Notes: generated by a model from the letters alone, not told the origin. DNA of 64,000 bases from an uncultured Candidatus Woesearchaeota archaeon (GCA_963717515.1 OY970338.1:670882-734881), one strand, 5' to 3'; counted from the first letter of the stretch, positions 1,182-37,144 are shown. Program-made: numbers and translations.

Positions 1182-1874
1182 ATGGTAAATAAATCCGGAA
1201 CCAAAAAAATATTTATCGTGATGCCCGCTTTCAATGAGGAGAAAGTCATAGGCAGGGTGATTGACAGTGTCAGGAGTGAGGGATTTGATAACCTGATTGT
1301 AATCGATGACGGCTGCGAGGACGGCACTGCAGAGATTGCAGATAAGAGAGGGGCCATTGTCTACAGGCACTTATTAAACAGGGGACTTGGTGGGGCTCTC
1401 GGAACAGGGCTTGCAGGTGCCCTGAAGCTTGAGGCAGATGTCATTGTGACATTCGACTCTGACGGCCAGCACAACCCAAAAGACATAAGGAATGTAATAT
1501 CGCCCATACTGAAGGGCAAGGCTGATGTTGTGATCGGCTCAAGGCTCATAAATCCAAAAGGGATGCCCCTTCTCAGGAGGGTCGGAAATTTCGGGCTCAA
1601 CATAATAACCTACATCCTATTCGGGGTGTGGACGACGGACTCCCAGTCAGGCTTCAGGGCATTCTCTGCACAGGCTGCCAAAAAGATAAATATCAGGACA
1701 AACAGGATGGAGGTCAGCTCTGAGATAATCAGGGAGATAGGAAGGAACAGGCTGAGATTTCAGGAAGTGCCAATAAAGGCGATATATACAGACTACTCGC
1801 TCAGACATGGCCAGAGTAGCATCAATGCCATAAGGATCGTCGCAAAGCTGATATTGAAAAAACTGATGAGATAA
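1182..1874 (+). CDS. Glycosyltransferase family 2 (polyprenyl-phosphate sugar synthase-like)
   Basis: GT-A motifs IFIVMPAFNEE, LIVIDDGCEDGT and TFDSDGQH. It starts 1 nt after the UbiA stop. Confidence 0.85.
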   Translation: MVNKSGTKKIFIVMPAFNEEKVIGRVIDSVRSEGFDNLIVIDDGCEDGTAEIADKRGAIVYRHLLNRGLGGALGTGLAGALKLEADVIVTFDSDGQHNPKDIRNVISPILKGKADVVIGSRLINPKGMPLLRRVGNFGLNIITYILFGVWTTDSQSGFRAFSAQAAKKINIRTNRMEVSSEIIREIGRNRLRFQEVPIKAIYTDYSLRHGQSSINAIRIVAKLILKKLMR

Positions 1875-1888
1875 GGAAGGTGATATGA

Positions 1889-2215
1889 ATGTTATTGCAG
1901 GTGATAATAATATTGTTTGCAGCTTTTGCACTCAGCAGGTCATACCTGAGGTACAGGAAAAATACTGAATCCCTTTGGGAATTCATGCTTTGGATAATCA
2001 TCTGGGTATCCATCGTCATTGTCGTACTGGTCCCTGAGATCACTGCGATTCCCGCGCAGATATTCGGCATAGGCAGAGGGATCGATGTCCTGATCTACAT
2101 CAGCATAGTCTTCCTGATATATTCTATTTACAGGATATATTCCAAGATAGAGCAGCTGGAACAGGACCTTACTAAGCTGACAAGGGAGATAGCGCTTGAG
2201 AGGAAGAAGAAATAG
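1889..2215 (+). CDS. Small membrane protein, DUF2304-like GT2 partner
   Basis: 108 aa with 3-4 TM helices followed by a charged coiled tail (EQLEQDLTKLTREIALERKKK). Immediately downstream of a GT2, which is the usual DUF2304 context. Confidence 0.6.
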   Translation: MLLQVIIILFAAFALSRSYLRYRKNTESLWEFMLWIIIWVSIVIVVLVPEITAIPAQIFGIGRGIDVLIYISIVFLIYSIYRIYSKIEQLEQDLTKLTREIALERKKK

Positions 2216-2282
2216 GAATGTAAAGCCGCTTGACCCGGATTGGATATCCATAAACTTAATAAAGATTCATGGTTTCATTCAG

Positions 2283-3377
2283 ATGATGAAAATATGCATA
2301 ATCATAGGGACCAGGCCCGAGATAATCAAGATGGCGCCCCTCATCAGGGCATGCGAGAAAATGAAACTGGATTATTTCATTCTGCATACGGGCCAGCATT
2401 ACACTTATGAGATGGACAGGAAATTCTTTGAGGAACTTGAGCTGAATGAGCCGAAATACAACCTGAATGTCGGCGGACAGGAATACAGGAAGCAGGTAGG
2501 GATGATGATCCGTGAAATTATGGACATCCTTAGGAAGGAATTGCCTGACATAGTCTTTGTCCAGGGAGACACTAACAGCGTGCTTGCCGGCGCGCTTGCG
2601 GCAAACAAGCTGAGGATAAAGATAGGCCACCACGAGGCAGGGCTCAGGAGCCATGACCTGACCATGCTCGAGGAGACAAACAGGATAATAACAGACCATA
2701 TATCAGATTATCTCTTTGCCCCGACAGAAGCAGCTCTCAGGAACCTCAAAGATGAAGGCATCAATGAGGGGAAGATGTTCCTGACAGGCAACACTATTGT
2801 GGATGCTGTGGAGCAGAACCTGAAAATCGCCGACAAGAGAGTCGATGTCCTGAAAAGGCTCGGCCTGGGCAAGAAAGGGTATGTCGTGGTCACTGCCCAC
2901 AGAGCAGAGAATGTGGATATTGAAAAACGGCTTAGAGGGATACTTGAGGGTCTGGTGCTTGTCCAGCGATATTTAAAGGTCCCTATCATCTTCCCGACAC
3001 ATCCGAGGACCGCAAACAACATAAAGAGATTCAGCCTTTCAGTGCCAGACAGCATCAGGCTCCTGGACCCGATGGGATATCTCGAATTTCTCCAGCTAGA
3101 GGGAAATGCCCGGCTGATAATAACAGACTCAGGCGGGCTCCAGGAAGAGGCATGCATACTGAAGATACCTTGCGTGACCATAAGGGACAATACAGAGCGG
3201 CCTGAGACAATCGAGGCAGGGATGAACATCCTCGCAGGCACTGACCCGAAAAAGATACTTGAATCAACCAAGCTTATGCTTGCGGACCGAAAAGAATGGA
3301 CAAACCCCTTCGGCGACGGAAAAGCAGGGGAGAGGATACTCGATATCTGGCTCAAAGGAGCTACTGAAAAGAGATGA
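2283..3377 (+). CDS. wecB: UDP-N-acetylglucosamine 2-epimerase (non-hydrolysing)
   Basis: ICIIIGTRPEIIKMAPLI, HHEAGLRS and ITDSGGLQEEA. Start moved to the MMK at 2283 because the ORF-track start at 2196 overlaps the previous gene. Confidence 0.85.
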   Translation: MMKICIIIGTRPEIIKMAPLIRACEKMKLDYFILHTGQHYTYEMDRKFFEELELNEPKYNLNVGGQEYRKQVGMMIREIMDILRKELPDIVFVQGDTNSVLAGALAANKLRIKIGHHEAGLRSHDLTMLEETNRIITDHISDYLFAPTEAALRNLKDEGINEGKMFLTGNTIVDAVEQNLKIADKRVDVLKRLGLGKKGYVVVTAHRAENVDIEKRLRGILEGLVLVQRYLKVPIIFPTHPRTANNIKRFSLSVPDSIRLLDPMGYLEFLQLEGNARLIITDSGGLQEEACILKIPCVTIRDNTERPETIEAGMNILAGTDPKKILESTKLMLADRKEWTNPFGDGKAGERILDIWLKGATEKR

Positions 3378-3422
3378 AAAAACCTGAGAAAGATTATTAA
3401 ACAGGACGGGATTCCCTTTTCC

Positions 3423-4571
3423 ATGAACATACTCATCACATCCATAATCGACCTGGAGAAGACATCTTTCTCAAGGCTCCATCATTTCATTGAGCATTTC
3501 CTCAATAATGGGCATAAAGTCACTGTCATAAGCCTCAGGGATACTTGGAAGCACAAGGGAATCAAGCAGAACCAGGCGCTCATTAGAAGGATAAAGGTAC
3601 ATTATATCACTGACAGGGAACTCAGCCCGATCCTCCAGAAAGGGAAGGCTTATTTCTCAATTAACAGGCTGCTCAGGGGGATAGACCTGGAAAAGACAGA
3701 TATCCATCTCGCCTACAACAGCCTCATACTGAGCTATCTCATATCAAAGAGGCTGAAGAAGCACGGCATAAAGACTATATATGACCTCGCAGATGACATG
3801 CCAGACATGCTGAGGAACAGCACTCAGATACCTGCATTCCTAAGGCTGTTTGCAGGTTATTTCGGAGGCATGATGCTCGAGAAGAACTTAAGGATGGCAG
3901 AACTTACTACTGTCTCAGCAAAGGAGCTGATAGGGAGCCTTGGTCTGGAGAAGCACAGGCATATATACATACCGAATGGTGTGGACCTGAAGAGATTCCG
4001 CCCACGCCAGTCAAGACACAAAGGCATCGTCATAGGATATCTCGGCGCCCTTCGTGAATGGGTCGACCTAAGGCCGATGCTATCCGCTGTAAAGAATCTC
4101 AAGGGCTATAAGCTCAAGGTGATGATTGTCGGCGGAGAAGAGGACCTGCCCAGATACCAGGAATACGTGAAGCAGAACAGGATGGAGAGCATCGTCACAT
4201 TCACAGGGAATGTGCCTTATGGCGAAGTCCCGCAATACATAAACAGGATGGACATAACTACTGTGCCATTCAAGAAAAATAGGGTGACTGACGGGACATG
4301 CCCGCTCAAGCTCCTTGAATATCTTGCCTGCGAAAAGCCCGCCGTGTGCTCAAAACTCAATGAGATAAGGTCGATGCTAGGCGATAGGGTCCTTTATGCA
4401 TCAACACAGAGGGAATGGGAGAAGCAGATAAGCACGCTCTATCATGACCAGATTCTCAGAGACATGCTCGGCAAGCAGGGAAGGAAGTATGTCGAGGAGA
4501 ACTTCAACTGGAAGAGGATCTGTGAGGGGATGGAAGATGCCCTTGACAGGTGCAGCAAAGGGCAGAATTAA
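3423..4571 (+). CDS. Glycosyltransferase family 4 (GT-B)
   Basis: 382 aa. C-terminal EX7E-type region TTVPFKKNRVTDGTCPLKLLEYLACEKPAV. Confidence 0.75.
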   Translation: MNILITSIIDLEKTSFSRLHHFIEHFLNNGHKVTVISLRDTWKHKGIKQNQALIRRIKVHYITDRELSPILQKGKAYFSINRLLRGIDLEKTDIHLAYNSLILSYLISKRLKKHGIKTIYDLADDMPDMLRNSTQIPAFLRLFAGYFGGMMLEKNLRMAELTTVSAKELIGSLGLEKHRHIYIPNGVDLKRFRPRQSRHKGIVIGYLGALREWVDLRPMLSAVKNLKGYKLKVMIVGGEEDLPRYQEYVKQNRMESIVTFTGNVPYGEVPQYINRMDITTVPFKKNRVTDGTCPLKLLEYLACEKPAVCSKLNEIRSMLGDRVLYASTQREWEKQISTLYHDQILRDMLGKQGRKYVEENFNWKRICEGMEDALDRCSKGQN

Positions 4572-19024: not shown

Positions 19025-20179
19025 TCATCTCTTTTTGCTTTTGAGTGCCTGTTCGTATATCTCTGCATATTTTTCAGTTATCCTGTCCCAGGCGAAGTCT
19101 TTTTTGACGAGAGTGCGAATGTTCTTCCCGAATGATTCCCTCTTTTTTTCGTCAAGGAGACTCTGGACGGCTTTTTCTATGTCTCTTGGGTTGTTGTGGC
19201 TGACAAGATAGCCTGTCTTGCCGGCCTTCACGATGTCTTCTGCAACGCCAACTCTTGTCGATATTATCGGCAGCCCTGCTGCTCCTGCTTCGAGCAATGT
19301 CTGGCCGAAGTTCTCCCAGACAGAGGTGTATATGAATATGTCGGCGTTCATGTATTCTTCAATGAGACTTTTGCCGTATTTCGGGCCTGTGAACATGGAA
19401 TTTATGCTGTATTTTGCAGCTGTATGCCTGAGCAGGTCCAGGTAGCCGAGCCTGTCTGTATCAGTCCTCCTGGCCTCCCCGCCGACAACCCTAATACATA
19501 TCCTTTTGTCGTCGAGTTTTTTCAGTGCATCGAGAATAGGCATCAGGTTCCTGTCCTTGCTTATCCTGCCGACAAAGAGCAGAACAATCCTGTCGTCTTT
19601 ACGGTTCCTCATGCTGAACTTGTAATCATTGACATCGATTCCCATGGGTACGATATGCAGCTTCTGTTTTTTTACGCCGAAATCAAGCGCCTCGCCGTAT
19701 TCCTGGTTCGATGAGACGACGACTGCATCGGATTTTCTTATCAGCTTCTTTCCGCCGAGGATGTCGTAGGACCAGTACGGGACTTTATTTATGCCTTCTG
19801 TGATCTTCTTGTACCCGTGAAGCCCTCCGTGGGTGTTTATGATGAAGGGTATCTTCAGCTTCTTTGCAGCCTTGTACCCTATCTCTGACTGGTAGCTCCT
19901 GTAGTTGTGGGCATGTATGATGTCCGGACGGAATATTATGAATTCTTTCTTCATCTGAGGCGTGTAGAGGTATTTGAGATACTTCCCTTTGACTTTGAAT
20001 CTCCTTACAGGGATGTCCTTGTAATCCTCTTCTGCAGGGCTCTCTTCTGCCATGTAGTCTGTGGTGAAGATGCTGGAAGCGATGTTTTTGTCTTTGAGCT
20101 TTTTGCTTATCATGTACGCCTGGTTCGCAGGTCCTGACATGAACGGGTAGAATGACTCGATTGTTCTCAGGATCTTCAT
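19025..20179 (-). CDS. Glycosyltransferase family 4 (GT-B)
   Basis: MKILRTIESFYPFMSGPANQ and the C-terminal VWENFGQTLLEAGAAGLPIISTRVGVAEDIV (EX7E). Start moved to 20179 so it does not overlap the upstream gene. Confidence 0.8.
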   Translation of the reverse strand: MKILRTIESFYPFMSGPANQAYMISKKLKDKNIASSIFTTDYMAEESPAEEDYKDIPVRRFKVKGKYLKYLYTPQMKKEFIIFRPDIIHAHNYRSYQSEIGYKAAKKLKIPFIINTHGGLHGYKKITEGINKVPYWSYDILGGKKLIRKSDAVVVSSNQEYGEALDFGVKKQKLHIVPMGIDVNDYKFSMRNRKDDRIVLLFVGRISKDRNLMPILDALKKLDDKRICIRVVGGEARRTDTDRLGYLDLLRHTAAKYSINSMFTGPKYGKSLIEEYMNADIFIYTSVWENFGQTLLEAGAAGLPIISTRVGVAEDIVKAGKTGYLVSHNNPRDIEKAVQSLLDEKKRESFGKNIRTLVKKDFAWDRITEKYAEIYEQALKSKKR

Positions 20180-20208
20180 TTTCTGGATATATGGCCCAGG
20201 GCAATATC

Positions 20209-22287
20209 TTATCTGCTGCCCTTGGCAGACTTCACTACGCCGAATGTCGTCTCTGTGGCTGTTATGCATTCCTCTGCTGTCACGAGCGAGCTTTCTTTTC
20301 CTGCGAGGTGTGCTGCAAGCTCTTTCATCTCCTGCTCGTGGCCCTCGTCAGCCTTTCCTGCGTAGACTGTCTTTCCATTCAGCCTTATCTTCGAGAGGCT
20401 GCTCATCTCGATTGTGTTTGCGTCCTGGATGATTGTGCATGATTCCCTGCCAGCCCCCGAGCTTCCTATGCATGAGTATGTGAGAGTGCAGACGCTCCCG
20501 TCCTGGTATTTTATGACAGCTGATATGTTGTTGTCGTCATTCCCGCCTGCTGAAGATAGCTTGCTTGCCTGAACTGTCACGGGCTTCGATCCGGTGAGGA
20601 AATTGAAGATATCTAAGATATGGCATGCCTCGCCTATGACTCTGCCCCCGCCCACATCAGGCTGGTTGACCCAGTGGTCTGCGGGCAGGAAGGTATTGTT
20701 GAATACGTAATTTACCATCATCGGAGACTTGTCTGAGAGCATTGATTTTATTTTTTTGAATACAGGCGAATACCTCCTGTTGAACCCGCATGCATAGGTC
20801 TTGGCGGTTTTCCTTATCTCTTTTACCAGGGACTGGAAGGATTTCTCATCGATCGCCATGGGCTTCTCTGAGAACACATGCTTTCCCTTTTTCAGGGCCT
20901 CTGCTGCTATCTCTGCATGGCTGTCGTGCCTGGTCCCTATAATCACCAGGTCGACATTCTTGTCATTTATGATGTCTGCATAGCTCGTGCTCGCGATCTT
21001 CGCCCCGTGCTCTCTTGCGAGCTTCTTTGCATTCGGCCCGCTCTTTGTCGCTATTGCATATAGTGAGAATTCCTTTATGTTCTTTATCGCCGGCAGTATG
21101 AAGCCTTTGACGAACTGGCCAGCGCCGATTATTGCGACATTTATCTTTCCGGTCTTTTTGAATTTTTCATCTGCGACAATTGTCTGCGCTTCGTCTTTGG
21201 GGTTGTACCTCAAGAGCGCAGTCATCATCTTGCCCTGCTCGAGTCCGCTGTAGGCTGTCTTTGCGTCGCTGATGTCGAATACATCTTTTTTCATCTCGCT
21301 TATGTCGAGCTTCTTTGTGGAGAGGAGTTCAAGCACTGCTCTCAGGTTCCTGCCGGATGTCCATCTTGCGTATTCTATAGGGTAATCCTTTCCCTGCTCG
21401 TAGATCTGGTCCAGGGAGCCTGCGCCGAATGCAGTGGATATTTTGAAATCCAGCTCTTTTTCGAACATCTTCTGCCTGTCTATATCAAGATTGCATATGC
21501 CTAACAGGACCACCCTTCCTTTTTTCCTGCACATGTCGAATGCGTCGTTGACAAGGTTCTTTTTCGAGGATGCCGCTATTATGACGCCGTCTGCGCCAGC
21601 TCCGTCTGTTGCGTTCATGACATTCTTTATCGTGTTTTTGGTTATTCCCACGTCGATGTACGACTTTCCTGTCTTTTCCCTGTCAATGTCAATGCCTATG
21701 ACCCTGCAGCCGTTCGCTCTCAGGAGCTGGGCCACCATCTGGCCTATGAGCCCGAGGCCTATGACAACAATGTTCTCGCCTAATTGCGGCTCGAGCTGTC
21801 TTATGGACTGGAGTGCTATGCATCCTATGCCTGAGAATGCTGCATCATCGAATTTCAGGCCTTTTGGTATCTTTGCTGCAAAGGTCTTCGGCACTGCTAC
21901 GTACTCTGCGTGGTTTGCAAAGCCTGAGCCGATGCACGCTACCCTGTCGCCCACACCGAAGCCTGCTGCGTTTTTCCCGGCCTTCACCACAGTCCCTGCC
22001 GAGCTGTATCCTAAGAGGTGCCAGACATCGAGCCTGCTCTTGACAACGTCCATTGTCTTTTTCACTCCAGAGCTTTTGGCGAAGTCCAATACCTGTCTTG
22101 TCAGGTCAGGCCTGTCGAGCGCCATCTTCCATAACGGCTTCTTCATCAGGCTTATCATGGATTTTTCCGTGCCTGCGCTGAGGACTGAGAAAGCGTTCTT
22201 TACAAGGAGCTCGTTGTCGCCTATCTCCGGTACAGGGACATCCTTCACCCTGACCCTTCCGCTCTTGTCGAATATGACCTGTTTCAT
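20209..22287 (-). CDS. Two-domain oxidoreductase: MDR/zinc-ADH-like N-terminal half fused to a Gfo/Idh/MocA C-terminal half
   Basis: 692 aa. N-terminal half has GDRVACIGSGFANHAEYV and IGLGLIGQ. C-terminal half has INVAIIGAGQFVKG and VFSEKPMAI. Confidence 0.75.
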   Translation of the reverse strand: MKQVIFDKSGRVRVKDVPVPEIGDNELLVKNAFSVLSAGTEKSMISLMKKPLWKMALDRPDLTRQVLDFAKSSGVKKTMDVVKSRLDVWHLLGYSSAGTVVKAGKNAAGFGVGDRVACIGSGFANHAEYVAVPKTFAAKIPKGLKFDDAAFSGIGCIALQSIRQLEPQLGENIVVIGLGLIGQMVAQLLRANGCRVIGIDIDREKTGKSYIDVGITKNTIKNVMNATDGAGADGVIIAASSKKNLVNDAFDMCRKKGRVVLLGICNLDIDRQKMFEKELDFKISTAFGAGSLDQIYEQGKDYPIEYARWTSGRNLRAVLELLSTKKLDISEMKKDVFDISDAKTAYSGLEQGKMMTALLRYNPKDEAQTIVADEKFKKTGKINVAIIGAGQFVKGFILPAIKNIKEFSLYAIATKSGPNAKKLAREHGAKIASTSYADIINDKNVDLVIIGTRHDSHAEIAAEALKKGKHVFSEKPMAIDEKSFQSLVKEIRKTAKTYACGFNRRYSPVFKKIKSMLSDKSPMMVNYVFNNTFLPADHWVNQPDVGGGRVIGEACHILDIFNFLTGSKPVTVQASKLSSAGGNDDNNISAVIKYQDGSVCTLTYSCIGSSGAGRESCTIIQDANTIEMSSLSKIRLNGKTVYAGKADEGHEQEMKELAAHLAGKESSLVTAEECITATETTFGVVKSAKGSR

Positions 22288-22366: not shown

Positions 22367-22696
22367 TCAGAACATCTCATAGATGAACGGAGATACTGAA
22401 TCTGACTGGCGGACATCGGCGAACTCAGGAGCTAGCTCCATGAGCTTTTTCGGGAGTTTTTCCAGTCCTGAGTCTTTCCATATCGCTTCAAGGGATGATA
22501 TTATCTTGTCTTGGTCTTTGAGTTTCAGCTCGAAATCCTCTTTTCGGAGGTTTTGGTCCTTCCTTTCCATGAAATAATCATCTGCTCCCTTTTCCTTGAT
22601 GACTGATATTTTTGAAATCCCTGAAAGGGGGACAAGTTCCTCGTCAAAGAACTTTGTCAATATCTTTTTCTGCTTCTCAGTCGAGCTCATACTCAT
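22367..22696 (-). CDS. Hypothetical small acidic protein
   Basis: About 109 aa, soluble, no motif I recognise. Overlaps the 3' end of the carbamoyltransferase gene. Start uncertain (22720/22696/22690). Confidence 0.4.
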   Translation of the reverse strand: MSMSSTEKQKKILTKFFDEELVPLSGISKISVIKEKGADDYFMERKDQNLRKEDFELKLKDQDKIISSLEAIWKDSGLEKLPKKLMELAPEFADVRQSDSVSPFIYEMF

Positions 22697-24503
22697 CCCT
22701 CCAGTCTTCCTTGTCGTCAAACTCTGGCTGGTCTTTCCTGTAAATGATCTGGTTTTCGATCACCAGCACGTCCATCCCTGTCCTCATGAAGCACTTGTAG
22801 GCATCCTGGGGTGTGCAGATTATGGGCTCGCCCCTGACATTGAACGAGGTGTTGACTATCACGCCATAGCCTGTGAGCTTCTCGAATTCAGATATCAGTT
22901 CGTGGTAATCAGGCTTGTCTCTTGCATCCACTGTCTGGATCCTTGCGCTGCAGTCCACGTGGGTCACAGCTGGTATGTCGCTTCTTTCCTGGTTGACTAT
23001 GTCATGGATGTCTTTTATCTCTATCTTCGGCACTTTCTTGCACCTGCTCTTCTTCACCCGGGCTACGAGGAGCATGTAGGGGCTTGGGACATCGAGGTCG
23101 AAGTATTGGCTGCATTTTTCAACCAATACTGAAGGTGCGAACGGACGGAATGATTCCCTGTACTTTATCTTGAGGTTCATGACGCTCTGGGTCTTCGGGT
23201 TTCTTGCATCTCCCAGGATTGAGCGTGCGCCCAGGGCTCTTGGCCCGAACTCGAGCCGTCCTGCCATATAGCCCACGATGTTTCCCACAGCTATCTCTTT
23301 TGCAGCTATTTTTGCCCGTTCTTTGTCTGTGACTGTCTTGTATGGGTAATCGTGATTGTCGAGGAATGCTTTTATTTCTGCGTTGCTGAACCTGGGACCG
23401 AGGTAGGAACCTTTCTGGCCGTCTCTTTCTTTATCTGGTGTTTTTCTTTTTACTTTGAAATATTCGTGCGTTGTTATCAGAGCAGCCCCTAAAGAGCCTC
23501 CTGCATCGCCGGCAGCTGGCTGTATCCAGATGTTCTCGAATATCTTCTCTTTCAATAGTTTTCCGTTTGCCACACAGTTGAGCGCCACGCCTCCAGCAAG
23601 GCAGATGTTCTTCTTTTTTGTAAGCTCTTTTGCATGGCGGCATAATTTGAGGAATATCTCTTCAGTGACATTCTGGATGGATGCTGCGATGTCCATCTCC
23701 CTTTTTGTCAGCTTTGATTCAGGCTCTCTTGGCTTGCCTTTGAATAATTTGTGGAATCTCTCGTTTGTCATGCTGAGCGAGTCCATGTAGCCGAAATATT
23801 CCATGTTTAATCTGAATGAGCCGTTTTCCTTTATGTCTATCATCTTGGATTTGATGAGGTCTGCGTATATGGGCTTTCCGTACGGCGCAAGGCCCATGAG
23901 CTTGTATTCGCCTGAATTGACCTTGAACCCGCAGAACTGTGTGAATGCGCTGTACATGAGACCCAGGGAATCAGGGAAATGGATCTCTTTCTTGATTCTT
24001 ATTCCGTCTTTGTCTCCTTCTCCTATGGAGAGAGTCGACCATTCGCCCACGCCGTCGATCGTCAGGATAGCGGCCTCTTCAAAAGGAGAGGGGTAGAATG
24101 CGCTTGCAGCATGGGAGAAATGATGCTCAGAATAGAGAACAGGTCCATTGTAGTCCAGGGTGTCTCTTACTATCTTTTCTATGAATAATTTTGCAGAGAG
24201 CCAGCCAGGCGCGCCTTTCAGCCATGGTCCTATGCCTTTTTTTCCTGCGGTTATCAGGCTCTTTATTATCCTGTCGAATGTCAGGACAGGGTTGTCGTAG
24301 AACACTATAGCGGTTATTTCATTCGGTTCTATCTCTGCCTCTTCGAGACAATATTGGATTGCGTGTATGGGGAACCTCGGGTCGTGCTTCTTCCTCGAGA
24401 ACCTCTCCTCGTGAGCAGCTGCTATTATCTCGCCGTCTTTCACCAGGCTTGCAGCTGAGTCATGGTAGAATGCTGATATCCCGAGGACGAATACAGGCTT
24501 CAT
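22677..24503 (-). CDS. Carbamoyltransferase (NodU/CmcH family)
   Basis: MKPVFVLGISAFYHDSAASLV plus a C-terminal carbamoyltransferase region, about 608 aa. ATGA overlap with the SGNH gene. Confidence 0.85.
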   Translation of the reverse strand: MKPVFVLGISAFYHDSAASLVKDGEIIAAAHEERFSRKKHDPRFPIHAIQYCLEEAEIEPNEITAIVFYDNPVLTFDRIIKSLITAGKKGIGPWLKGAPGWLSAKLFIEKIVRDTLDYNGPVLYSEHHFSHAASAFYPSPFEEAAILTIDGVGEWSTLSIGEGDKDGIRIKKEIHFPDSLGLMYSAFTQFCGFKVNSGEYKLMGLAPYGKPIYADLIKSKMIDIKENGSFRLNMEYFGYMDSLSMTNERFHKLFKGKPREPESKLTKREMDIAASIQNVTEEIFLKLCRHAKELTKKKNICLAGGVALNCVANGKLLKEKIFENIWIQPAAGDAGGSLGAALITTHEYFKVKRKTPDKERDGQKGSYLGPRFSNAEIKAFLDNHDYPYKTVTDKERAKIAAKEIAVGNIVGYMAGRLEFGPRALGARSILGDARNPKTQSVMNLKIKYRESFRPFAPSVLVEKCSQYFDLDVPSPYMLLVARVKKSRCKKVPKIEIKDIHDIVNQERSDIPAVTHVDCSARIQTVDARDKPDYHELISEFEKLTGYGVIVNTSFNVRGEPIICTPQDAYKCFMRTGMDVLVIENQIIYRKDQPEFDDKEDWRDEYELD

Positions 24504-25504
24504 GCTTTTTTCCATGTTTCATATGTCCCTTTTATGTATTGCGATATCCCGTCGGCGATTATTTCGTGGCCTAAAGGTGTAGGGTGCTGGTCATTTTTGA
24601 ACCTGCATCTCCTTCTTGTGTCTTTTGATTCTTTCCAGAACCTGGGGAGGAGGTCGCCTACCTTTATTTTGGTATCTTGTTCCAGCTCTTTGAACCTTTT
24701 CTGGAAACTGCCAGGGTCTGCAAGGTTCTCTATGTAATGATACACCGGGATTGGGCAGATCATCGGCTTTTTTGCTTCTTCTGTCCAGGTCTTGAGGAGC
24801 TTTTTCATGAGCACCCAGCCGGGGCTGTCTTTATCATTGTACTCAGGGAAGGGCTGGTATCCCAATGTCTTCTGGAGCTTGTCTTTTATATTTGGCGCTT
24901 TTCTCAGAAGCCTGTCTGCGACAGGATGCCTTCCCCCTTCGTCGATGTATTGCTTCAGTTCCGGGTTGTCCTTCATGTCTTTTTCTGTAAGTGTTATTTT
25001 TGGCACCGGGCTGTTGTTTAGCCTGAGAGCGTTGTTTTCCATCGTGAAATACGGCTTTGCCCTTGCTGATAATTCTCCTGTCTCTGCGCTTCTCGAAAGC
25101 CTGTACCTTGCCATGTTGCGCCTTATGTTCTCTGCGAGCGGGCATATCAGGAGCAGGTCGTAATCTATATCTTTTGCAAATTCTTTGAATATGAGGTACT
25201 GCTGGTCTGTGCCTGAGCCCGGGAGTCCGAAATTGAGCACTTCTGTGCCTGGGAATCTTTTTTCTAGGAGGTCTCCGAACCTGTACTTGTTGCTCACTCC
25301 CTCGCCTGCTGTGTATGAGTCACCGAAGAGAAGGATTCTATAGGTGTTTTCTGGCTTTTTTTTGGTCACCTCGTGCTCGCAGCGGAAGCCGGCCTGGTTG
25401 GCCTTCACCAGAAACCCGCCTCCCTCGTGGCTGACCCTCGCCTTTATGCCCGGGATGAAGGTATAACCGATCACCGGATGATACTGGAAGAGATTTCTGT
25501 TCAT
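24500..25504 (-). CDS. SGNH/GDSL-type hydrolase (esterase/acyl-transfer fold)
   Basis: Block I ILLFGDSYTAGEGV and block II-like FGLPGSGTD. 334 aa. Confidence 0.65.
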   Translation of the reverse strand: MNRNLFQYHPVIGYTFIPGIKARVSHEGGGFLVKANQAGFRCEHEVTKKKPENTYRILLFGDSYTAGEGVSNKYRFGDLLEKRFPGTEVLNFGLPGSGTDQQYLIFKEFAKDIDYDLLLICPLAENIRRNMARYRLSRSAETGELSARAKPYFTMENNALRLNNSPVPKITLTEKDMKDNPELKQYIDEGGRHPVADRLLRKAPNIKDKLQKTLGYQPFPEYNDKDSPGWVLMKKLLKTWTEEAKKPMICPIPVYHYIENLADPGSFQKRFKELEQDTKIKVGDLLPRFWKESKDTRRRCRFKNDQHPTPLGHEIIADGISQYIKGTYETWKKA

Positions 25505-25671
25505 GCATGCACCTGACTCGGAGAATGGGATGGAGGTATTTAAAGTTTTTGAACTGTGTGTCTAGATAAGGAAATAATATAGCAGTTGAGAAAACGACTT
25601 AGAAATATTTATAAATTAGTTATCCTTGATAGAATTTATTAACAAAAATAAGATTAAAATAGGTGATTATT

Positions 25672-25812
25672 ATGGCAACGGATATTACAACAATCAGTTT
25701 ATCAATAAGCATTGGAACTCTCGCAGCTTTGGTTTATACTTTAAGAGTTGTTGTTTTGCTTGATAGAAAAATTTCAAAATTAATGAAACATCAAGGAATA
25801 AGTCAAAAATAA
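25672..25812 (+). CDS. Unannotated 46-aa single-TM small ORF
   Basis: My own translation is MATDITTISLSISIGTLAALVYTLRVVVLLDRKISKLMKHQGISQK. AGGTGA lies 5 nt upstream of the ATG. Below the ORF-track cutoff. Confidence 0.35.
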   Translation: MATDITTISLSISIGTLAALVYTLRVVVLLDRKISKLMKHQGISQK

Positions 25813-25908
25813 TTGACTAATATTCAACTGAAACTGACCTCGTGTTTAAACTTAATAAGATGGAGAATAAAGACCTCTGTCTATTCTCCCCGACTTCTCA
25901 TCCATAAC

Positions 25909-25916
25909 CTTTAAAA
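25909..25916 (+). promoter_or_regulatory. TATA-like box CTTTAAAA (duplicated copy)
   Basis: Identical box at the same offset as 27425-27432, 24 nt upstream of the ATG at 25940. Confidence 0.5.
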
Positions 25917-25939
25917 ACGCCTCTGTGTTCTGCATGGTC

Positions 25940-26047
25940 ATGGCAGTCATGAAATCATTGAAGCTCGGGGCTGAAGGGATCGTCTCAGGTACCAGGTATC
26001 ACTGGAACAAGTCCCGTGGGAAGAGGCAGTTCCCTCTTTTCCTCTGA
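25940..26047 (+). pseudogene. Truncated 5' fragment of a radical SAM/SPASM gene (35 codons then stop)
   Basis: MAVMKSLKLGAEGIVSGTRYHWNKSRGKRQFPLFL* compared with MAVLKSLKLGAEGVVSGTKYHYNKARGKRQYPTFLIYQ at 27456. It ends before the CxxxCxxC cluster. Confidence 0.8.
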
Positions 26048-26144
26048 TAAAGTTCTAAACTCAGCAACATTTATATTAAACACCCTCCACCCCAACATAT
26101 AAGAGGTGAGCCAGGAATCACCTAGACTGATTCTGGAGTTGAAA

Positions 26145-26531
26145 ATGTTCAAAATTTTGCTGATTGATGATAAAGATCGTAAGAAGGACAAGATAGATGG
26201 GATCCTTCATTATTACAAGGAGGATCATGGAGAGGATACTGTCTCCATGGAGGCTTTCAAAGATGAAAGATCAGGCCTGGAAGCCCTTGTCCCGGGCAGG
26301 TATGACCTGGTCCTTCTGGACCAGTATCTGGACGAGGGAGGAAACAAATTAGGGACCTCATTGATTCCAGAGATAAGACAGATTGACCCGGATGTAAAAA
26401 TATGGATGTATACAAGTGCAATCAATTTTGAAACATCGAAAAAAGCAGGAGCAGATGATGTATTGAATCCTTCTTCCATCAATTATTTTGACAAGTTATA
26501 TAACCATATATTGCATCAAGTTAATAAGTAA
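26145..26531 (+). CDS. Stand-alone CheY-like response-regulator receiver domain
   Basis: MFKILLIDDKD, the acceptor region YDLVLLDQYL, WMYTSA and KKAGADDVL. GGAG lies 6 nt upstream of the ATG at 26145. The coding sequence is low in GC. Confidence 0.75.
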   Translation: MFKILLIDDKDRKKDKIDGILHYYKEDHGEDTVSMEAFKDERSGLEALVPGRYDLVLLDQYLDEGGNKLGTSLIPEIRQIDPDVKIWMYTSAINFETSKKAGADDVLNPSSINYFDKLYNHILHQVNK

Positions 26532-26605
26532 ATTTCAAAATAGTCCCTTATTAGTGGTGACAAAATAGAAACATTTATATATTAGTTATATCTAATCATA
26601 CTAAT

Positions 26606-27325
26606 ATGGACAATTATAATGTTATTTATGGCAGGTATATGTATACTATTCGTGCTATCCAGGAAGCTGAACGTGAAGGGACATTTAAAGACCTTCCTGA
26701 TAAGCTATTGGAGATTGATGATCTTGTAACGAAAATATTCGATTCAACTGAACCACCTGAAAAAGAGACTAAAGAATTTAAGGATTACATAATCAAAACA
26801 GGTTCAGTCCCTTTGCCGACAGACGAGCAGATAGAAGATTTTGCTAAGACCTTGCATAATAGAGGAAAAAAAGGATACAGGGGTAATTATTTTCATGGAT
26901 ATCATTTCTTTATTGATCCAGCTGCAGGACAAAGTGGGTATGGGTATTTTGAAATACCAAAATTTGAAAGTCTTTCAGGCGGGTATTGTAGAAATATTTC
27001 TCCAAAAAATCCAAATGAAAATCCAAATTCCAGGGATGAGTACTTGTCCAGATTTGGATATATAGACTTTACACATTTGATCAATGATGGAAAATTAGAA
27101 GATCAGATATTAGCGTTTTCTTTAGATAAAGAGATGACATATGCTGATTTGGAAAAGACTGAATTATTCATACCTGTTCCAAGGGAAATAACTCGTTTGG
27201 TAAGGCTCGTTAAATATGAAGCAGGTTTTAGTTATGGAAATAAGATGAGACCCTTTACTTGGATTGAACAGATACATAAAATGGTCGAAGTAGTCAAAGC
27301 AGGCAGAGAGAAATATGCAGCATAA
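26606..27325 (+). CDS. Hypothetical 239-aa soluble protein, no recognisable family
   Basis: Long ORF with no competing frame, low GC, Gly/Tyr-rich centre (GYRGNYFHGYHFFIDPAAGQSGYGYFEIP). Confidence 0.55.
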   Translation: MDNYNVIYGRYMYTIRAIQEAEREGTFKDLPDKLLEIDDLVTKIFDSTEPPEKETKEFKDYIIKTGSVPLPTDEQIEDFAKTLHNRGKKGYRGNYFHGYHFFIDPAAGQSGYGYFEIPKFESLSGGYCRNISPKNPNENPNSRDEYLSRFGYIDFTHLINDGKLEDQILAFSLDKEMTYADLEKTELFIPVPREITRLVRLVKYEAGFSYGNKMRPFTWIEQIHKMVEVVKAGREKYAA

Positions 27326-27398
27326 TCCTCAATCCCTTTCTCATTGTTTAGGATTATTGAAAATTGAGATTAACAATAATCAATGCAAAATCAACACA

Positions 27399-27566
27399 AT
27401 TCTCACCGACTTCTCATTCATAACCTTTAAAAGCCCGTTTGTGTTCTTGCAATAGATGGCAGTGCTCAAATCATTGAAGCTCGGGGCTGAGGGAGTTGTC
27501 TCAGGGACGAAGTACCATTACAACAAGGCCCGTGGGAAGAGGCAGTATCCGACATTCCTGATATAC
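27399..27566 (+). repeat. Direct repeat copy B (native promoter and 5' end of the radical SAM gene)
   Basis: See copy A. Confidence 0.85.
27425..27432 (+). promoter_or_regulatory. TATA-like box CTTTAAAA of the radical SAM gene
   Basis: 24 nt upstream of the ATG at 27456, consistent with a leaderless or short-leader transcript. Confidence 0.5.
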
Positions 27567-28571
27567 CAGTACACAGACACCTGCAATTCCCGGTGCACGA
27601 TGTGCAATATATGGAAAAAGGAGCCCAAGGACGAGCTCAGGCCAGAAGAGCTTGAGAAGATATTCAAGGATCCTCTCTTCAGCAGGTTGAGATGGGTCAA
27701 TCTCACCGGAGGCGAGCCTTTTTTGAGAAAAGACATAGTGGAGACTGTAAAGCTCATATCAACCCTCCCGAAGCTTGAAGGAATCGCAATCCCGTCGAAC
27801 GGCTTCCTGACAGAGAAGATAGTAAAAGATGCAAAAGATATCCTCAAGATCCTGCCAAAGGACCAGTTCCTATCGATAACATTGTCGATAGACGGGTTTG
27901 AAAAAACACATGATGAAATTCGAGGAGTTCCCGGCGCATATAAAAAAGTCACAGAGACATTAAGAAGACTCAAAGAAATAAAGAACCCGAATTTCAACGT
28001 AGGCATCCAGCCGACAATAATGAAGAAGAACCTGGGCGAGATAGAAGAATTCTACAATGAGATGAAAAAGACGACAAAGAGCATAGGCTTTGCAGTGATG
28101 CTCGAGAGCGAGGGGTATTACGGCAACATGGGCTCAGAAGCCAAACTAAACAAGCAAGATAAATTAAAGATTGCCGATTTCCTCAAAAAGACACTCAAGG
28201 ACGACCCCCAGTACGGGTTCTATTATTCAAAGCTCATAGAGATGTTCAAGACTGGGAAGAGGGGCTTTGGCTGCCTTGCAGGTTACTTAACCCTGTACAT
28301 GAACCCATACGGCGATCTGTACCCATGCCCGGTCCTCTCTTCAGTGATGAGGTACAATTTCGGAAACGTGAAAGACAGCAAGTGGTTCACAAAGAACATC
28401 AAAAGGCCCCTGGAGAGCGAGCCTATATGCGAGAAATGCCACATGATGTGCGATTTCATAAATGTGGCCAAAGTCGAGTTCTTTGAGCATGCGACATTCA
28501 TGCTCTTCCACCCGAAGATACTCAAGAACCTCATAAAAAAGATAAACGCTGAGAAGAACCCGTATTTCTAG
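27456..28571 (+). CDS. Radical SAM protein with a C-terminal SPASM/twitch-like Cys-rich domain
   Basis: CNSRCTMCNIW (CxxxCxxC), NLTGGEPFL, and the C-terminal GFGCLAGY...LYPCPV...EPICEKCHMMCD. Confidence 0.8.
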   Translation: MAVLKSLKLGAEGVVSGTKYHYNKARGKRQYPTFLIYQYTDTCNSRCTMCNIWKKEPKDELRPEELEKIFKDPLFSRLRWVNLTGGEPFLRKDIVETVKLISTLPKLEGIAIPSNGFLTEKIVKDAKDILKILPKDQFLSITLSIDGFEKTHDEIRGVPGAYKKVTETLRRLKEIKNPNFNVGIQPTIMKKNLGEIEEFYNEMKKTTKSIGFAVMLESEGYYGNMGSEAKLNKQDKLKIADFLKKTLKDDPQYGFYYSKLIEMFKTGKRGFGCLAGYLTLYMNPYGDLYPCPVLSSVMRYNFGNVKDSKWFTKNIKRPLESEPICEKCHMMCDFINVAKVEFFEHATFMLFHPKILKNLIKKINAEKNPYF

Positions 28572-28668: not shown

Positions 28669-30456
28669 ATGGGCTTGAAAAATATTTTGGGGAGCAAAAG
28701 GAACAGGATAATCATCGTAATCTCTCTCATGATAATCTGTTTCCTGATAAGGCTGCACAATTCAGGGGGATTGAGCGGAGGGGATGATTCCAGCTATGCA
28801 GCCTGGTTCTTCTATGCCTATGAACAGCCGACAAGGTTCATATACCTGACCATCCCTGACCTGCCTGTCTGGCACCAGGGCATGTCTCTTCTCAGGAACT
28901 TCTCGATAATCCCTCTGGCACCGTTCGTGTACCTGTTCGGATTCAACACAGCCTCATTGAAGCTTGCAAGCCTGATCTTTGCATCGCTGTCAGTGATGAT
29001 GGCATACATACTTGCGAAGAGGTATTTCAATACAGGGATAGCCCTTCTCACCATGATCCTATTCGTATTCTCACCTCTGAACATAGCTTTCTCAAGGGTG
29101 GTATTTGTCGATTCTGCACTGACATTCTACATCCTCCTGACGATCTATCTCGTCGTCCGGGGCATTGAGGAGAAGAGACCGGGATTTTTCTACATCGCTG
29201 GCCTTGTCTGTCTGGTAGACCAGCTCACCACCAATTTCAGGGGGCTGGTTCCGCTCGTCGGGCTAGTGCCATTCGTGATCCTGTCAAGACCTTCAAAAAA
29301 GCAATGGAAACATCTCGTCCTTGTTGCGATCCTCGCAATGTCCGTATATATCGGCTATACATTGCTGCCTCTGTTATGGGGGGACAGCAGCTTCATCCTG
29401 AGACTGTTCATGAGAATCAACCACGCTGAAGGTGCACGCGGCACGATTTTTTTCACATCTTTAATTCAAATCGGAAAATACCTTTATTTCACCCCGTTCC
29501 TTGGATTGATAGTCGTTCCGGCATTGTTCGGGATATATCATGTATCCAAAGACCTTAAGCGCCCGATAAACGCCTTGACCATATTCTACCTGTTGAGCTC
29601 GATCGTCTTTTATGTGCAGGGCCAGTTCTACCCGTCAAGACAGACCATCTATGTCCCTGTATTTGCATTGCTGGCATCAATAGGCATCATCAGCATGCTC
29701 AAGCCTGCCAAGCAAAGAATGACCAGGCTATATTCACTGATCTTTTTCACGATTGGATACTATCTCCTGATGGTATACATGATGCTCAATCACATCCCGG
29801 AGACATATCCATTTAAGCAAACCATGAGCAGCATCATAGGCAGCAAGGCATTCTCTATCGGGACATACCTGCTCATCGTACTGACAATATTATCTATATT
29901 CATCCCATTCATCCTGCGCTATATCGGAAGAATAAATAAATTCCTGGTAACAAATGAAAAAATTCTTCTCTGGTCAGGAAAGGCAATCCTCATTATCCTG
30001 TTGATAATCAATATCATGGTTCCAGTGATATCTGTTGGGGCAGGATTCGGGATATACCACAGGTCAGATAAGATAAATGCTATCGCCGATTATCTTGAGA
30101 AGAACCTCGGTGATGAGAAATACGGCTGCATCGCAGGGATCCATCAGAAGACCCTGACCTACCTGCTCAAGAGACAATGCATAACCTATAGTGCAGACAT
30201 CGACTGGCTGGAAAGAAATAAAGAGGAGGGGAACCTGAAATATTTTGTGATCAATCTGGAATATGACCGAGGCACCCTATTCCTGGGAAAGTTCCTGAAG
30301 AACGGCAGTGTTGACACGACTGATTACGACAATCCGCTGATACAGAAGAATGATTACCAGAAGATCGCCTGGGTCTTCAACAATACTGTCGACATCACTG
30401 AAAAGACTTCGCTGGGAAAAGATAATCCCTTCTTCAGGCTGAGAGAGATAAAGTAA
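28669..30456 (+). CDS. GT-C fold glycosyltransferase (GT39/GT83, ArnT/PMT-like)
   Basis: 595 aa with about 12 or more TM helices, an acidic first loop GGDDSSYAAWFFY, and a C-terminal soluble domain. No WWDYG motif, so it is not an AglB/STT3 oligosaccharyltransferase. Confidence 0.65.
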   Translation: MGLKNILGSKRNRIIIVISLMIICFLIRLHNSGGLSGGDDSSYAAWFFYAYEQPTRFIYLTIPDLPVWHQGMSLLRNFSIIPLAPFVYLFGFNTASLKLASLIFASLSVMMAYILAKRYFNTGIALLTMILFVFSPLNIAFSRVVFVDSALTFYILLTIYLVVRGIEEKRPGFFYIAGLVCLVDQLTTNFRGLVPLVGLVPFVILSRPSKKQWKHLVLVAILAMSVYIGYTLLPLLWGDSSFILRLFMRINHAEGARGTIFFTSLIQIGKYLYFTPFLGLIVVPALFGIYHVSKDLKRPINALTIFYLLSSIVFYVQGQFYPSRQTIYVPVFALLASIGIISMLKPAKQRMTRLYSLIFFTIGYYLLMVYMMLNHIPETYPFKQTMSSIIGSKAFSIGTYLLIVLTILSIFIPFILRYIGRINKFLVTNEKILLWSGKAILIILLIINIMVPVISVGAGFGIYHRSDKINAIADYLEKNLGDEKYGCIAGIHQKTLTYLLKRQCITYSADIDWLERNKEEGNLKYFVINLEYDRGTLFLGKFLKNGSVDTTDYDNPLIQKNDYQKIAWVFNNTVDITEKTSLGKDNPFFRLREIK

Positions 30457-36166: not shown

Positions 36167-36976
36167 ATGAGACTTGGCAAAGTTAGATACAACAGAAAAG
36201 TTTTTATAAAAAGGCCGATGATATATTGTACAATGGCAATTTCTATGGTCGCAGTTTTTCAGACCTTTAATTCCTGGGGGATATTTAATATCTTTATCCC
36301 TGCATTGTCCATGGCAACAATCTGTTTAATCATCATTTTTTCCATTTTTGGTTTATGGAATATCAAATTGGGAAGGAAACTCTTGTATTCAATAATACTT
36401 TCAATAGTGTTCGGCTTAATAGTGATTGTAATAGGGATTTTTGACATATACCCGGGTGGATTTAATCTATTTCAAATTTATCAATCCGGATTTCCCTTAT
36501 TAGTACCAATTGCCGGAAGTCTTCTTATTGCTTTATTTCCCTTATCGCTGCTGTTTGATAAACAGCTAAATATATTAATAATTTTGATTGTATTAACAAT
36601 ATTGATTCTCCCTTTCAGTATTGGATATGTCACTATTTTATTTGGAATATCAATTATTCATAGTATCCAATTCAACACCCTTCTCAGCAATACAGCTGGA
36701 TTAATGCTTTTGGCGCTTATCCCAGTCTTTCCTATTTTACTCATCATATCCCAATATAAAGGAATTTCGAGTCATATAAATATAAACATAGTGAAAACAA
36801 TATCCATACTTGCAATAATATATTCAGTCATCAGGATTGTACTTTATTCAGATATTAAGGCATACGGAATAGAGGTTATCACTTATTCAATGTTTTTAAG
36901 CGTCATTTTATGGTCAATGTTGTTGTATAAATTATACAGATCTCCCGGAACTATGGGTTTAAAAATTGACTCTTAG
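36167..36976 (+). CDS. Low-GC polytopic membrane protein of unknown function (possible Wzy-like polymerase)
   Basis: About 8 TM helices, very AT-rich coding sequence, sits at the edge of the glycan island. Start uncertain. Confidence 0.45.
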   Translation: MRLGKVRYNRKVFIKRPMIYCTMAISMVAVFQTFNSWGIFNIFIPALSMATICLIIIFSIFGLWNIKLGRKLLYSIILSIVFGLIVIVIGIFDIYPGGFNLFQIYQSGFPLLVPIAGSLLIALFPLSLLFDKQLNILIILIVLTILILPFSIGYVTILFGISIIHSIQFNTLLSNTAGLMLLALIPVFPILLIISQYKGISSHININIVKTISILAIIYSVIRIVLYSDIKAYGIEVITYSMFLSVILWSMLLYKLYRSPGTMGLKIDS

Positions 36977-36996
36977 CATTAACTTTAATCGAAATA

Positions 36997-37024: not shown

Positions 37025-37144
37025 ATGTGGACGGCCATAGCAGCCTGGAAATACCCGTTCCCATTTCGAACACGGAAGTCAAGCAGGCTTACGTTCTGTT
37101 GTGTACTGTACTTTTGTACGGGAAAAGCAGAAAGCTGTTCACAC
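37025..37144 (+). rRNA. rrf: 5S ribosomal RNA (archaeal type), not linked to 16S/23S in this window
   Basis: ACGGCCATAGC...CCCATTTCGAACACGGAAGTCAAGC...GTACTG core. Helix I can form between GTGGACGGC (37027-37035) and GCTGTTCAC (37134-37142). A T-rich tract follows. Ends are accurate to about 3 nt. Confidence 0.9.

Follow-up and report, generated by a model that had tools for sequence, protein, structure and literature searches.

The window analysed here, a stretch of 64,000 nucleotides (nt) from an uncultured Candidatus Woesearchaeota archaeon (GCA_963717515.1, OY970338.1:670882-734881), carries a cluster of surface-glycan biosynthesis genes in which the promoter region and the first codons of a radical SAM/SPASM gene are present twice. 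The downstream copy (copy B) is the beginning of the intact gene. The upstream one (copy A) is a stub of 35 codons, and the DNA between both copies is a low-GC cassette of two genes, which encode a stand-alone receiver-domain protein and a protein of an orphan family. Copy A is probably the relic head of a second radical SAM/SPASM allele or paralogue that was cut at an illegitimate junction with foreign DNA. The coordinates of the features are collected in Table 1.

The repeat is real and far beyond chance. The repeat search placed the two copies, 168 nt each, at a fixed start-to-start offset of 1516, which agrees with an earlier note on this DNA, and resolved them into two blocks: 25883-25931 with 27399-27447 (49 nt, 88% identity) and 25940-26043 with 27456-27559 (104 nt, 80% identity). 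The match was significant both in blastn (E = 1.35e-13) and in tblastn with the head of 35 amino acids (aa) as the query (E = 6e-16), and two sub-patterns of 27 and 23 nt were found exactly twice each in the window, versus 0 expected from shuffles. Concerning the boundaries, the identity profile per 10 nt showed an abrupt onset of homology at 25883 and a fade-out over 26030-26050. The CTTTAAAA box is present at 25909 in copy A and at 27425 in copy B, each followed by an ATG (25940 and 27456), and the coding parts show 22 differences in 105 nt. The shared box, the ATG, both peptides and the approximate number of mismatches had all been given exactly in the earlier note. However, the 1-nt indel that it had proposed as the end of copy A is wrong, since the two copies keep the same frame through codon 35 and it is codon 36 that differs, with an in-frame TGA in copy A versus ATA in copy B. 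This TGA is also the end of the homology; if a shift of 2 nt (CT) is allowed where the repeat finishes, TTCCT[CT]GATA, only a few matching bases are gained.

The substitution pattern between the two copies is the main evidence about what copy A was. The first 35 residues belong to the conserved sequence of the enzyme, as seen in 34 homologues. The head of copy A shares 28 of these residues with copy B and at most 18 with any of the 34 homologues, and therefore A and B are mutually the closest relatives. The 22 differences are distributed as 4, 4 and 14 over the first, second and third codon positions. The Nei-Gojobori proportions of synonymous and non-synonymous differences (pS = 0.52 and pN = 0.118) correspond to a non-synonymous to synonymous rate ratio (omega) of about 0.15, and the synonymous excess is significant (Fisher p = 2e-4). 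Three histories of the pair were simulated, conditioned on 11-14 synonymous differences, and compared with the 9.5 non-synonymous differences observed. When A drifted neutrally since the duplication, 25.8 non-synonymous differences were expected (95% range 11-41; P(<=9.5) = 0.011). With the constraint of the extant gene (omega 0.085) on both copies, the expectation was 5.1 (P(>=9.5) = 0.086), and the best fit came from giving copy A an intermediate omega, 0.3, with 10.9 expected. Neutral drift of the stub since a target duplication is consequently rejected. Considering this result and the 14 third-position differences, copy A is most likely the head of a second copy that was once functional.

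Furthermore, copy A carries residues that are absent from all 34 homologues at four of its seven replaced positions, which points to some decay after the truncation, and its Leu33 replaces the Thr of the PTFL motif (T33L), conserved in 31 of the 34 homologues. Taken with the substitution pattern, these odd residues describe a gene that was constrained and working during most of the divergence from B, with slight decay since. The synonymous divergence (dS) between A and B is 0.7-0.9, versus 0.43 between copy B and its orthologue in a Methanosarcinales metagenome-assembled genome (MAG), with a large error because the comparison has only 24 synonymous sites. At the protein level, no other relics of the radical SAM body were found in 25505-27398.

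Copy A therefore has the features of a gene remnant: it is a truncated homologue beside the intact gene, its coding pattern is that of a once-constrained sequence, and it ends at a compositional break, where the GC content goes from 0.49 to 0.40 in the spacer and then to 0.35-0.39 in the cassette genes (0.39 in the receiver gene and 0.35 in the orphan gene). The intergenic DNA of the cassette is at 0.22-0.29, and the flanking genes are at 0.46-0.49. The GC content at third codon positions (GC3) is 0.27 in the orphan gene and 0.43-0.44 in the receiver gene versus 0.55-0.77 in nearly all the other genes of the window and about 0.6 in the neighbouring ones, so the cassette is compositionally foreign. 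The DNA between the copies is thus AT-rich, as noticed earlier, but it is not bracketed by them, because the stretch to the left of copy A (25505-25882) has a GC content of only 0.30.

According to these data, the history could have been as follows. A second version of the radical SAM gene would have been an old paralogue or an allele of a different lineage, and during most of the time since it separated from copy B it would have worked as a gene. Everything after codon 35 would then have been lost at an illegitimate junction, at 26044-26050, with foreign DNA that carried the receiver and orphan genes. The loss would have taken place in a surface-glycan biosynthesis island whose modules are reshuffled one by one, and no target-site duplication by a mobile element would be involved. 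This order of events is the one that we infer. Promoter A would presumably still fire a leaderless transcript through the stub open reading frame (ORF) into the receiver gene, and the 35-aa peptide itself would be without function. From the two readings offered in the earlier note, the second one, a replaced radical SAM copy of which only the head was left, fits this history, whereas the first one, a duplication of the target, is disfavoured by the simulation.

Nevertheless, several points weigh against the relic head. It needs at least two breakpoints, whereas one duplicative insertion would explain both boundaries (-57 and +105). The selection test covers 35 codons, with about 24 synonymous sites near saturation, and the same low omega would be expected from a peptide under selection. 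Moreover, neither a full-length copy A gene nor an empty site was found in any related genome, and the history is read from one sequence. The comparison of empty and occupied alleles in related loci, suggested in the earlier note, gave no empty-site allele in the collections searched, the closest sequence being one truncated MAG contig. The scan of genome contigs gave this single close relative, which starts at codon 61, metagenome contigs gave nothing above 61%, and the nearest matches of the protein searches were at 68% for the radical SAM protein and 65% for the SGNH hydrolase. No further stubs were present in the window or in the related loci, nor was there a second genome with the stub.

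The best-surviving alternative, although an unlikely one, is that copy A is a regulatory duplicate whose promoter, and perhaps its 35-codon leader ORF, has been retained by selection, either by promoter capture or as a micro-protein. As to the origin of copy A, it overlaps with the relic-head reading. The promoter itself is well conserved. A 16-nt box, TYCAYAACCTTTAAAA, which we take to be a B recognition element (BRE) plus a TATA element driving a leaderless mRNA, is invariant in five family promoters: those of copy A (25901-25916), copy B (27417-27432), the related loci L026/L027 (3371-3386 and 1332-1347), L010 (9952-9967) and L025 (7962-7977). Its spacing to the start codon is constant (23-24 nt) and it does not occur elsewhere in the sequences compared. 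It should be noted that this box is kept across radical SAM orthologues with only 61-68% protein identity, which is unusually strict for a promoter.

Copy A retains all the invariant box positions and the 23-nt spacing, identity in the 49 nt around the box is 88%, above that of the synonymous sites, and the ORF is open for 35 codons with a low omega, all of which would be expected if the duplicate had been kept. In addition, no run of four or more T was found between the stub and the receiver gene or between the cassette genes. With an intact box and no such run, transcripts from promoter A could plausibly read through into the cassette, and the promoter capture proposed in the earlier note is possible. 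However, it is unneeded because both genes have their own TATA-like boxes. The one of the receiver gene, AACATTTATATT, is about 67 nt before its ATG (at ~26066), and the one of the orphan gene (26569) is of the genome-common type A[AC]A[CT]ATTTATA[AT], which is also present before a small ORF (25603). The odd residues of copy A at family-conserved positions, such as T33L, and the lack of the stub in any second genome also argue against a retained duplicate. The more specific proposal, that selection keeps the stub as a regulatory module by which the receiver and orphan genes are co-controlled with the radical SAM gene, or as the source of a micro-protein imitating the enzyme's N-terminus, would be improbable.

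The two TATA-like boxes of the genome-common type lie in a 24-nt repeat (25600-25623 and 26566-26589, 22 of 24 identical). It was considered as a second duplication and rejected, since its E value is marginal (0.03) and half of it is the common BRE/TATA consensus, which is also found at 36992, 40781 and 37958.

Somewhat less likely than a retained regulatory duplicate is a duplicative insertion, in which a lone ancestral gene would have received the cassette, with 168 bp of the target copied in the process, either by the repair of a staggered break or by a Campbell-type single crossover of a circle with a homologous head. The copies would have diverged afterwards, or they would already have been 20% apart if the head of the circle was foreign. 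Such an event has the advantage of giving both boundaries and the order A-cassette-B in one step, and it is consistent with a foreign composition of the segment that separates the copies. On the other hand, a dead stub predicts about 26 non-synonymous differences and not the 9.5 seen (P = 0.011), low-GC DNA is also present to the left of copy A, and homologous crossover would have had a poor substrate, since the longest identical run inside the 168-nt repeat is only 23 nt. The machinery that could have carried out the insertion is also missing: Pfam scans of the cassette and the neighbouring genes gave no transposase, no gene scanned or annotated in the ~10 kb to each side has a recombinase domain, the 64-kb window lacks tRNA genes, and the repeat search showed no terminal inverted repeats at the cassette ends, only short inverted pairs at chance level. 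This supports the previous observation that no standard mobile element accompanies the cassette.

For the same reasons, two particular forms of insertion were rejected. A transposable element with target-site duplication does not agree with the lack of transposase and terminal inverted repeats, nor with a repeat of 168 nt at 80-88% identity whose differences are mostly at third positions (14 of 22) and for which neutral drift is rejected, and an integrase-mobilised island does not agree with the lack of tRNA genes in the 64 kb and of recombinase domains within ~10 kb. A tandem duplication was also discarded, since no resemblance was found between the 73 nt upstream of copy B and the radical SAM gene's 3' flank, nor between the spacer that follows copy A and the remainder of the gene, with scores within those of shuffles.

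Regarding the assembly, three contigs of Logan, an independent k-mer assembly of the run ERR11571143, tile the window with 0 mismatches. The first (L024) ends at 25438, the second (L002) covers 25409-27442 (2,034 nt) and the third (L001) starts at 27413. The second contig is unbroken across copy A, the junction between A and the cassette, the entire cassette and 44 nt of copy B. Exact-protein look-ups found ERR11571143 as the sole sample. The breaks between the contigs, at 25409-25438 and 27413-27442, flank the contig with copy A and the cassette and have exact 30-nt overlaps, which identifies them as branches of the assembly graph. The branch points adjoin the low-GC segment, neither of them is at a repeat junction, and their cause may be a co-existing structural variant. 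As an improbable further possibility, the 168-nt repeats might let the cassette be lost reversibly within the population, and the graph branches could hint at it. An assembly artefact, that is, a chimeric join of the alleles of two strains or a mis-resolved repeat, is very improbable: these breaks on both sides and the fact that the sole related MAG contig likewise ends in the 5' part of the gene would be in its favour, but the second Logan contig runs without mismatches through copy A, the junction and the cassette into copy B, the branch points are away from the repeat junctions, and copies that are 20% different cannot be collapsed or confused by an assembler.

Table 1. Position of the repeat copies, the cassette and the surrounding genes in the window
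Feature	Position	Strand	Characteristics
Copy A, probable relic of a radical SAM 5' end	25883..26050	+	57 nt promoter region + 35 codons + stop; GC 0.49, like native genes
Copy A BRE/TATA-type box TCCATAACCTTTAAAA	25901..25916	+	23 nt before ATG
Copy A stub ORF, 35 codons, MAVMKSLKLGAEGIVSGTRYHWNKSRGKRQFPLFL and stop	25940..26047	+	28/35 identical to copy B head
Copy B, start of the intact gene (promoter region, codons 1 to 35-37)	27399..27566	+	Repeat search, identity profile
Intact radical SAM/SPASM gene, 371 aa	27456-28571	+	PF04055 70 bits; SPASM 23.4 bits; GC3 0.63
AT-rich stretch left of copy A	25505..25882	+	GC 0.30; holds small ORF
Spacer	26051..26144	+	TATA-like box AACATTTATATT at ~26066-26077; GGAG 8 nt before receiver ATG; no oligo-T run
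Stand-alone receiver-domain protein, 128 aa (141 aa if start is GTG 26106)	26145..26531	+	PF00072
Orphan-family protein, 239 aa	26606..27325	+	GC3 0.27; own BRE/TATA-like box 26569-26580; looks leaderless
GT4 glycosyltransferase	19025-20269	-	
Fused ADH_zinc/GFO_IDH_MocA oxidoreductase	20209-22287	-	Pfam
Small ORF (~108 aa)	22367-22720	-	
Carbamoyltransferase	22677-24515	-	Pfam
SGNH/GDSL hydrolase	24500-25504	-	Pfam
PMT_2 glycosyltransferase	28669-30456	+	Followed by more sugar genes

The intact gene next to the cassette encodes a radical SAM protein with a SPASM domain (PF13186, 23.4 bits versus a cut-off of 21.5) and its translation contains the CNSRCTMC motif (C43-NSR-C47-TM-C50), and no NCBIfam equivalog reaches its cut-off with this protein. 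Its neighbourhood differs among the related loci. The Methanosarcinales MAG contig (L003, CAYXZQ010000021.1) begins at codon 61 and matches the window only in the gene itself (positions 1-936 with 27636-28571, 90.6% nt identity). The homology reaches exactly to the radical SAM gene's stop codon, and all the genes downstream are different. In L026, which has the nearest full-length homologue (68% aa identity), the radical SAM gene directly adjoins the divergent GT4 glycosyltransferase and oxidoreductase genes (1192-4543 for the oxidoreductase and radical SAM pair), and in L010 (6904-11119) the same oxidoreductase is 1 kb upstream of it. In the window, the oxidoreductase and the radical SAM gene are separated by the SGNH hydrolase, carbamoyltransferase and small ORF, the stub and the cassette. 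Given these differing neighbours and the modules that separate the two genes, the stretch would be a site of repeated insertion or replacement. The conserved neighbourhood of the oxidoreductase and the radical SAM gene also suggests a shared sugar-modification pathway.

The set formed by the SGNH hydrolase, the carbamoyltransferase and the small ORF (22367-25504) has the same gene order in three unrelated metagenome contigs (L028-L030), with 65% identity in the hydrolase, and looks like a portable three-gene module. The glycan island is a mosaic of modules.

Displaced or 'orphaned' gene fragments produced by module replacement have been proposed in Rhs and contact-dependent inhibition (CDI) loci and in the effector-immunity arrays of the Vibrio cholerae type VI secretion system (T6SS) (PMC5361080), with homology-facilitated illegitimate recombination as the suggested route (PMC5361080 and its references). 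Copy A is a new example of this known scar type and an ordinary feature. As in those loci, a truncated copy of a neighbouring gene is beside unrelated new DNA, no integrase or transposase is present and one end of the join is non-homologous. Unlike them, where the pieces displaced downstream are 3' ends and immunity genes, this locus has a 5' head that was left upstream together with its promoter, and instead of a toxin system the context is an archaeal glycan-biosynthesis cluster, for which this mechanism is proposed by likeness. The cell-wall island GI1 of Haloquadratum walsbyi, a replacement-type flexible island whose diversity has been attributed to recombination and mobile elements (PMC4535781), is also comparable in being a cluster of glycosyltransferases and sugar enzymes, with modules that have differing neighbours and with compositionally odd inserts. 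The differences are that here only one genome of the lineage is available and no mobile-element gene was seen.

Target-site duplications of transposons or insertion sequences and the att repeats of integrases share with copies A and B the presence of direct repeats flanking inserted DNA. However, the repeat described here is 168 nt long, 20% diverged and has coding-type substitutions, and it is not accompanied by terminal inverted repeats, a transposase, an integrase or a tRNA. A small ORF upstream of a radical SAM/SPASM gene is likewise reminiscent of the precursors of ribosomally synthesised and post-translationally modified peptides (RiPPs) and their maturases. This candidate was rejected because the stub has 80% identity with the N-terminus of the enzyme itself, a part conserved in 34 homologues, and the context is one of sugar genes.

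If copy A is such a relic, the stub would mark a recombination breakpoint in an archaeal surface-glycan island at single-base resolution, and the modules of the island would have been exchanged without recognisable mobile-element genes. The locus could also serve as a small natural experiment on a duplicated archaeal promoter, which may or may not stay active once its gene is lost. The current understanding is not changed by these results. Possibly more useful than the scar are the conserved promoter box, the oxidoreductase/radical SAM pair and the five-member orphan family.

Concerning the cassette genes, the receiver domain that had been noticed between the copies was recovered by PF00072 with a score of 31.7 bits, just over the Pfam cut-off of 30.2, and the protein also gave a weak match to RR468 (3a0r). 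Aligned with RR468, it has the acidic pocket (DD at residues 8-9), the phospho-acceptor D59 in LVLLD, and the Thr. At residues ~100-110 it reads GADDVLNPSS versus GA..Y(V/L).KP in receivers, with no Lys aligned, in an alignment that was judged by eye. As the conserved Lys of the K-P motif that follows beta-5 is apparently absent, the domain would be atypical, and this protein may be an atypical receiver or a pseudo-receiver. In the spacer before the gene, a Shine-Dalgarno-like AGGTGA is paired with a TCACCT 8 nt downstream in a 6-bp hairpin (26102-26121), and no start codon is usably spaced from it.

The second gene had been taken as an ORFan, and indeed no family was assigned to it in Pfam, NCBIfam, PHROGs (only E values above 0.06) or PADLOC. 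Nevertheless, four remote homologues (P0122-P0125; 29-44% identity) were found in 1.8 billion representative proteins. The five members share 27 invariant columns, for example, YI..T...PLPT..Q..F and RFGY, and this indicates that the family is real but rare. One of the homologues is among sugar genes, with no receiver gene adjoining. A mobile or viral origin of this gene was rejected, since there was no match in phage records, plasmid records, IMG/VR or PADLOC, and PHROGs gave the same E values above 0.06. The protein has no sequence match in the PDB, and its AlphaFold model is too poor to use (mean predicted local distance difference test, pLDDT, of 57.8).

The AT-rich stretch to the left of copy A holds a small ORF (25672-25812) that encodes a hydrophobic peptide of 46 aa. 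It has an AGGTGAT in front and the TATA-like box at 25603 mentioned above, and it is also called by Logan. A second low-GC gene without a Pfam family (36167-36976; 269 aa, GC 0.31, GC3 0.33), with no similarity to the orphan gene, is located directly upstream of a solitary 5S rRNA gene (37027-37143). This rRNA gene is the sole match of the Rfam scan in the window, which gave none in the cassette region.

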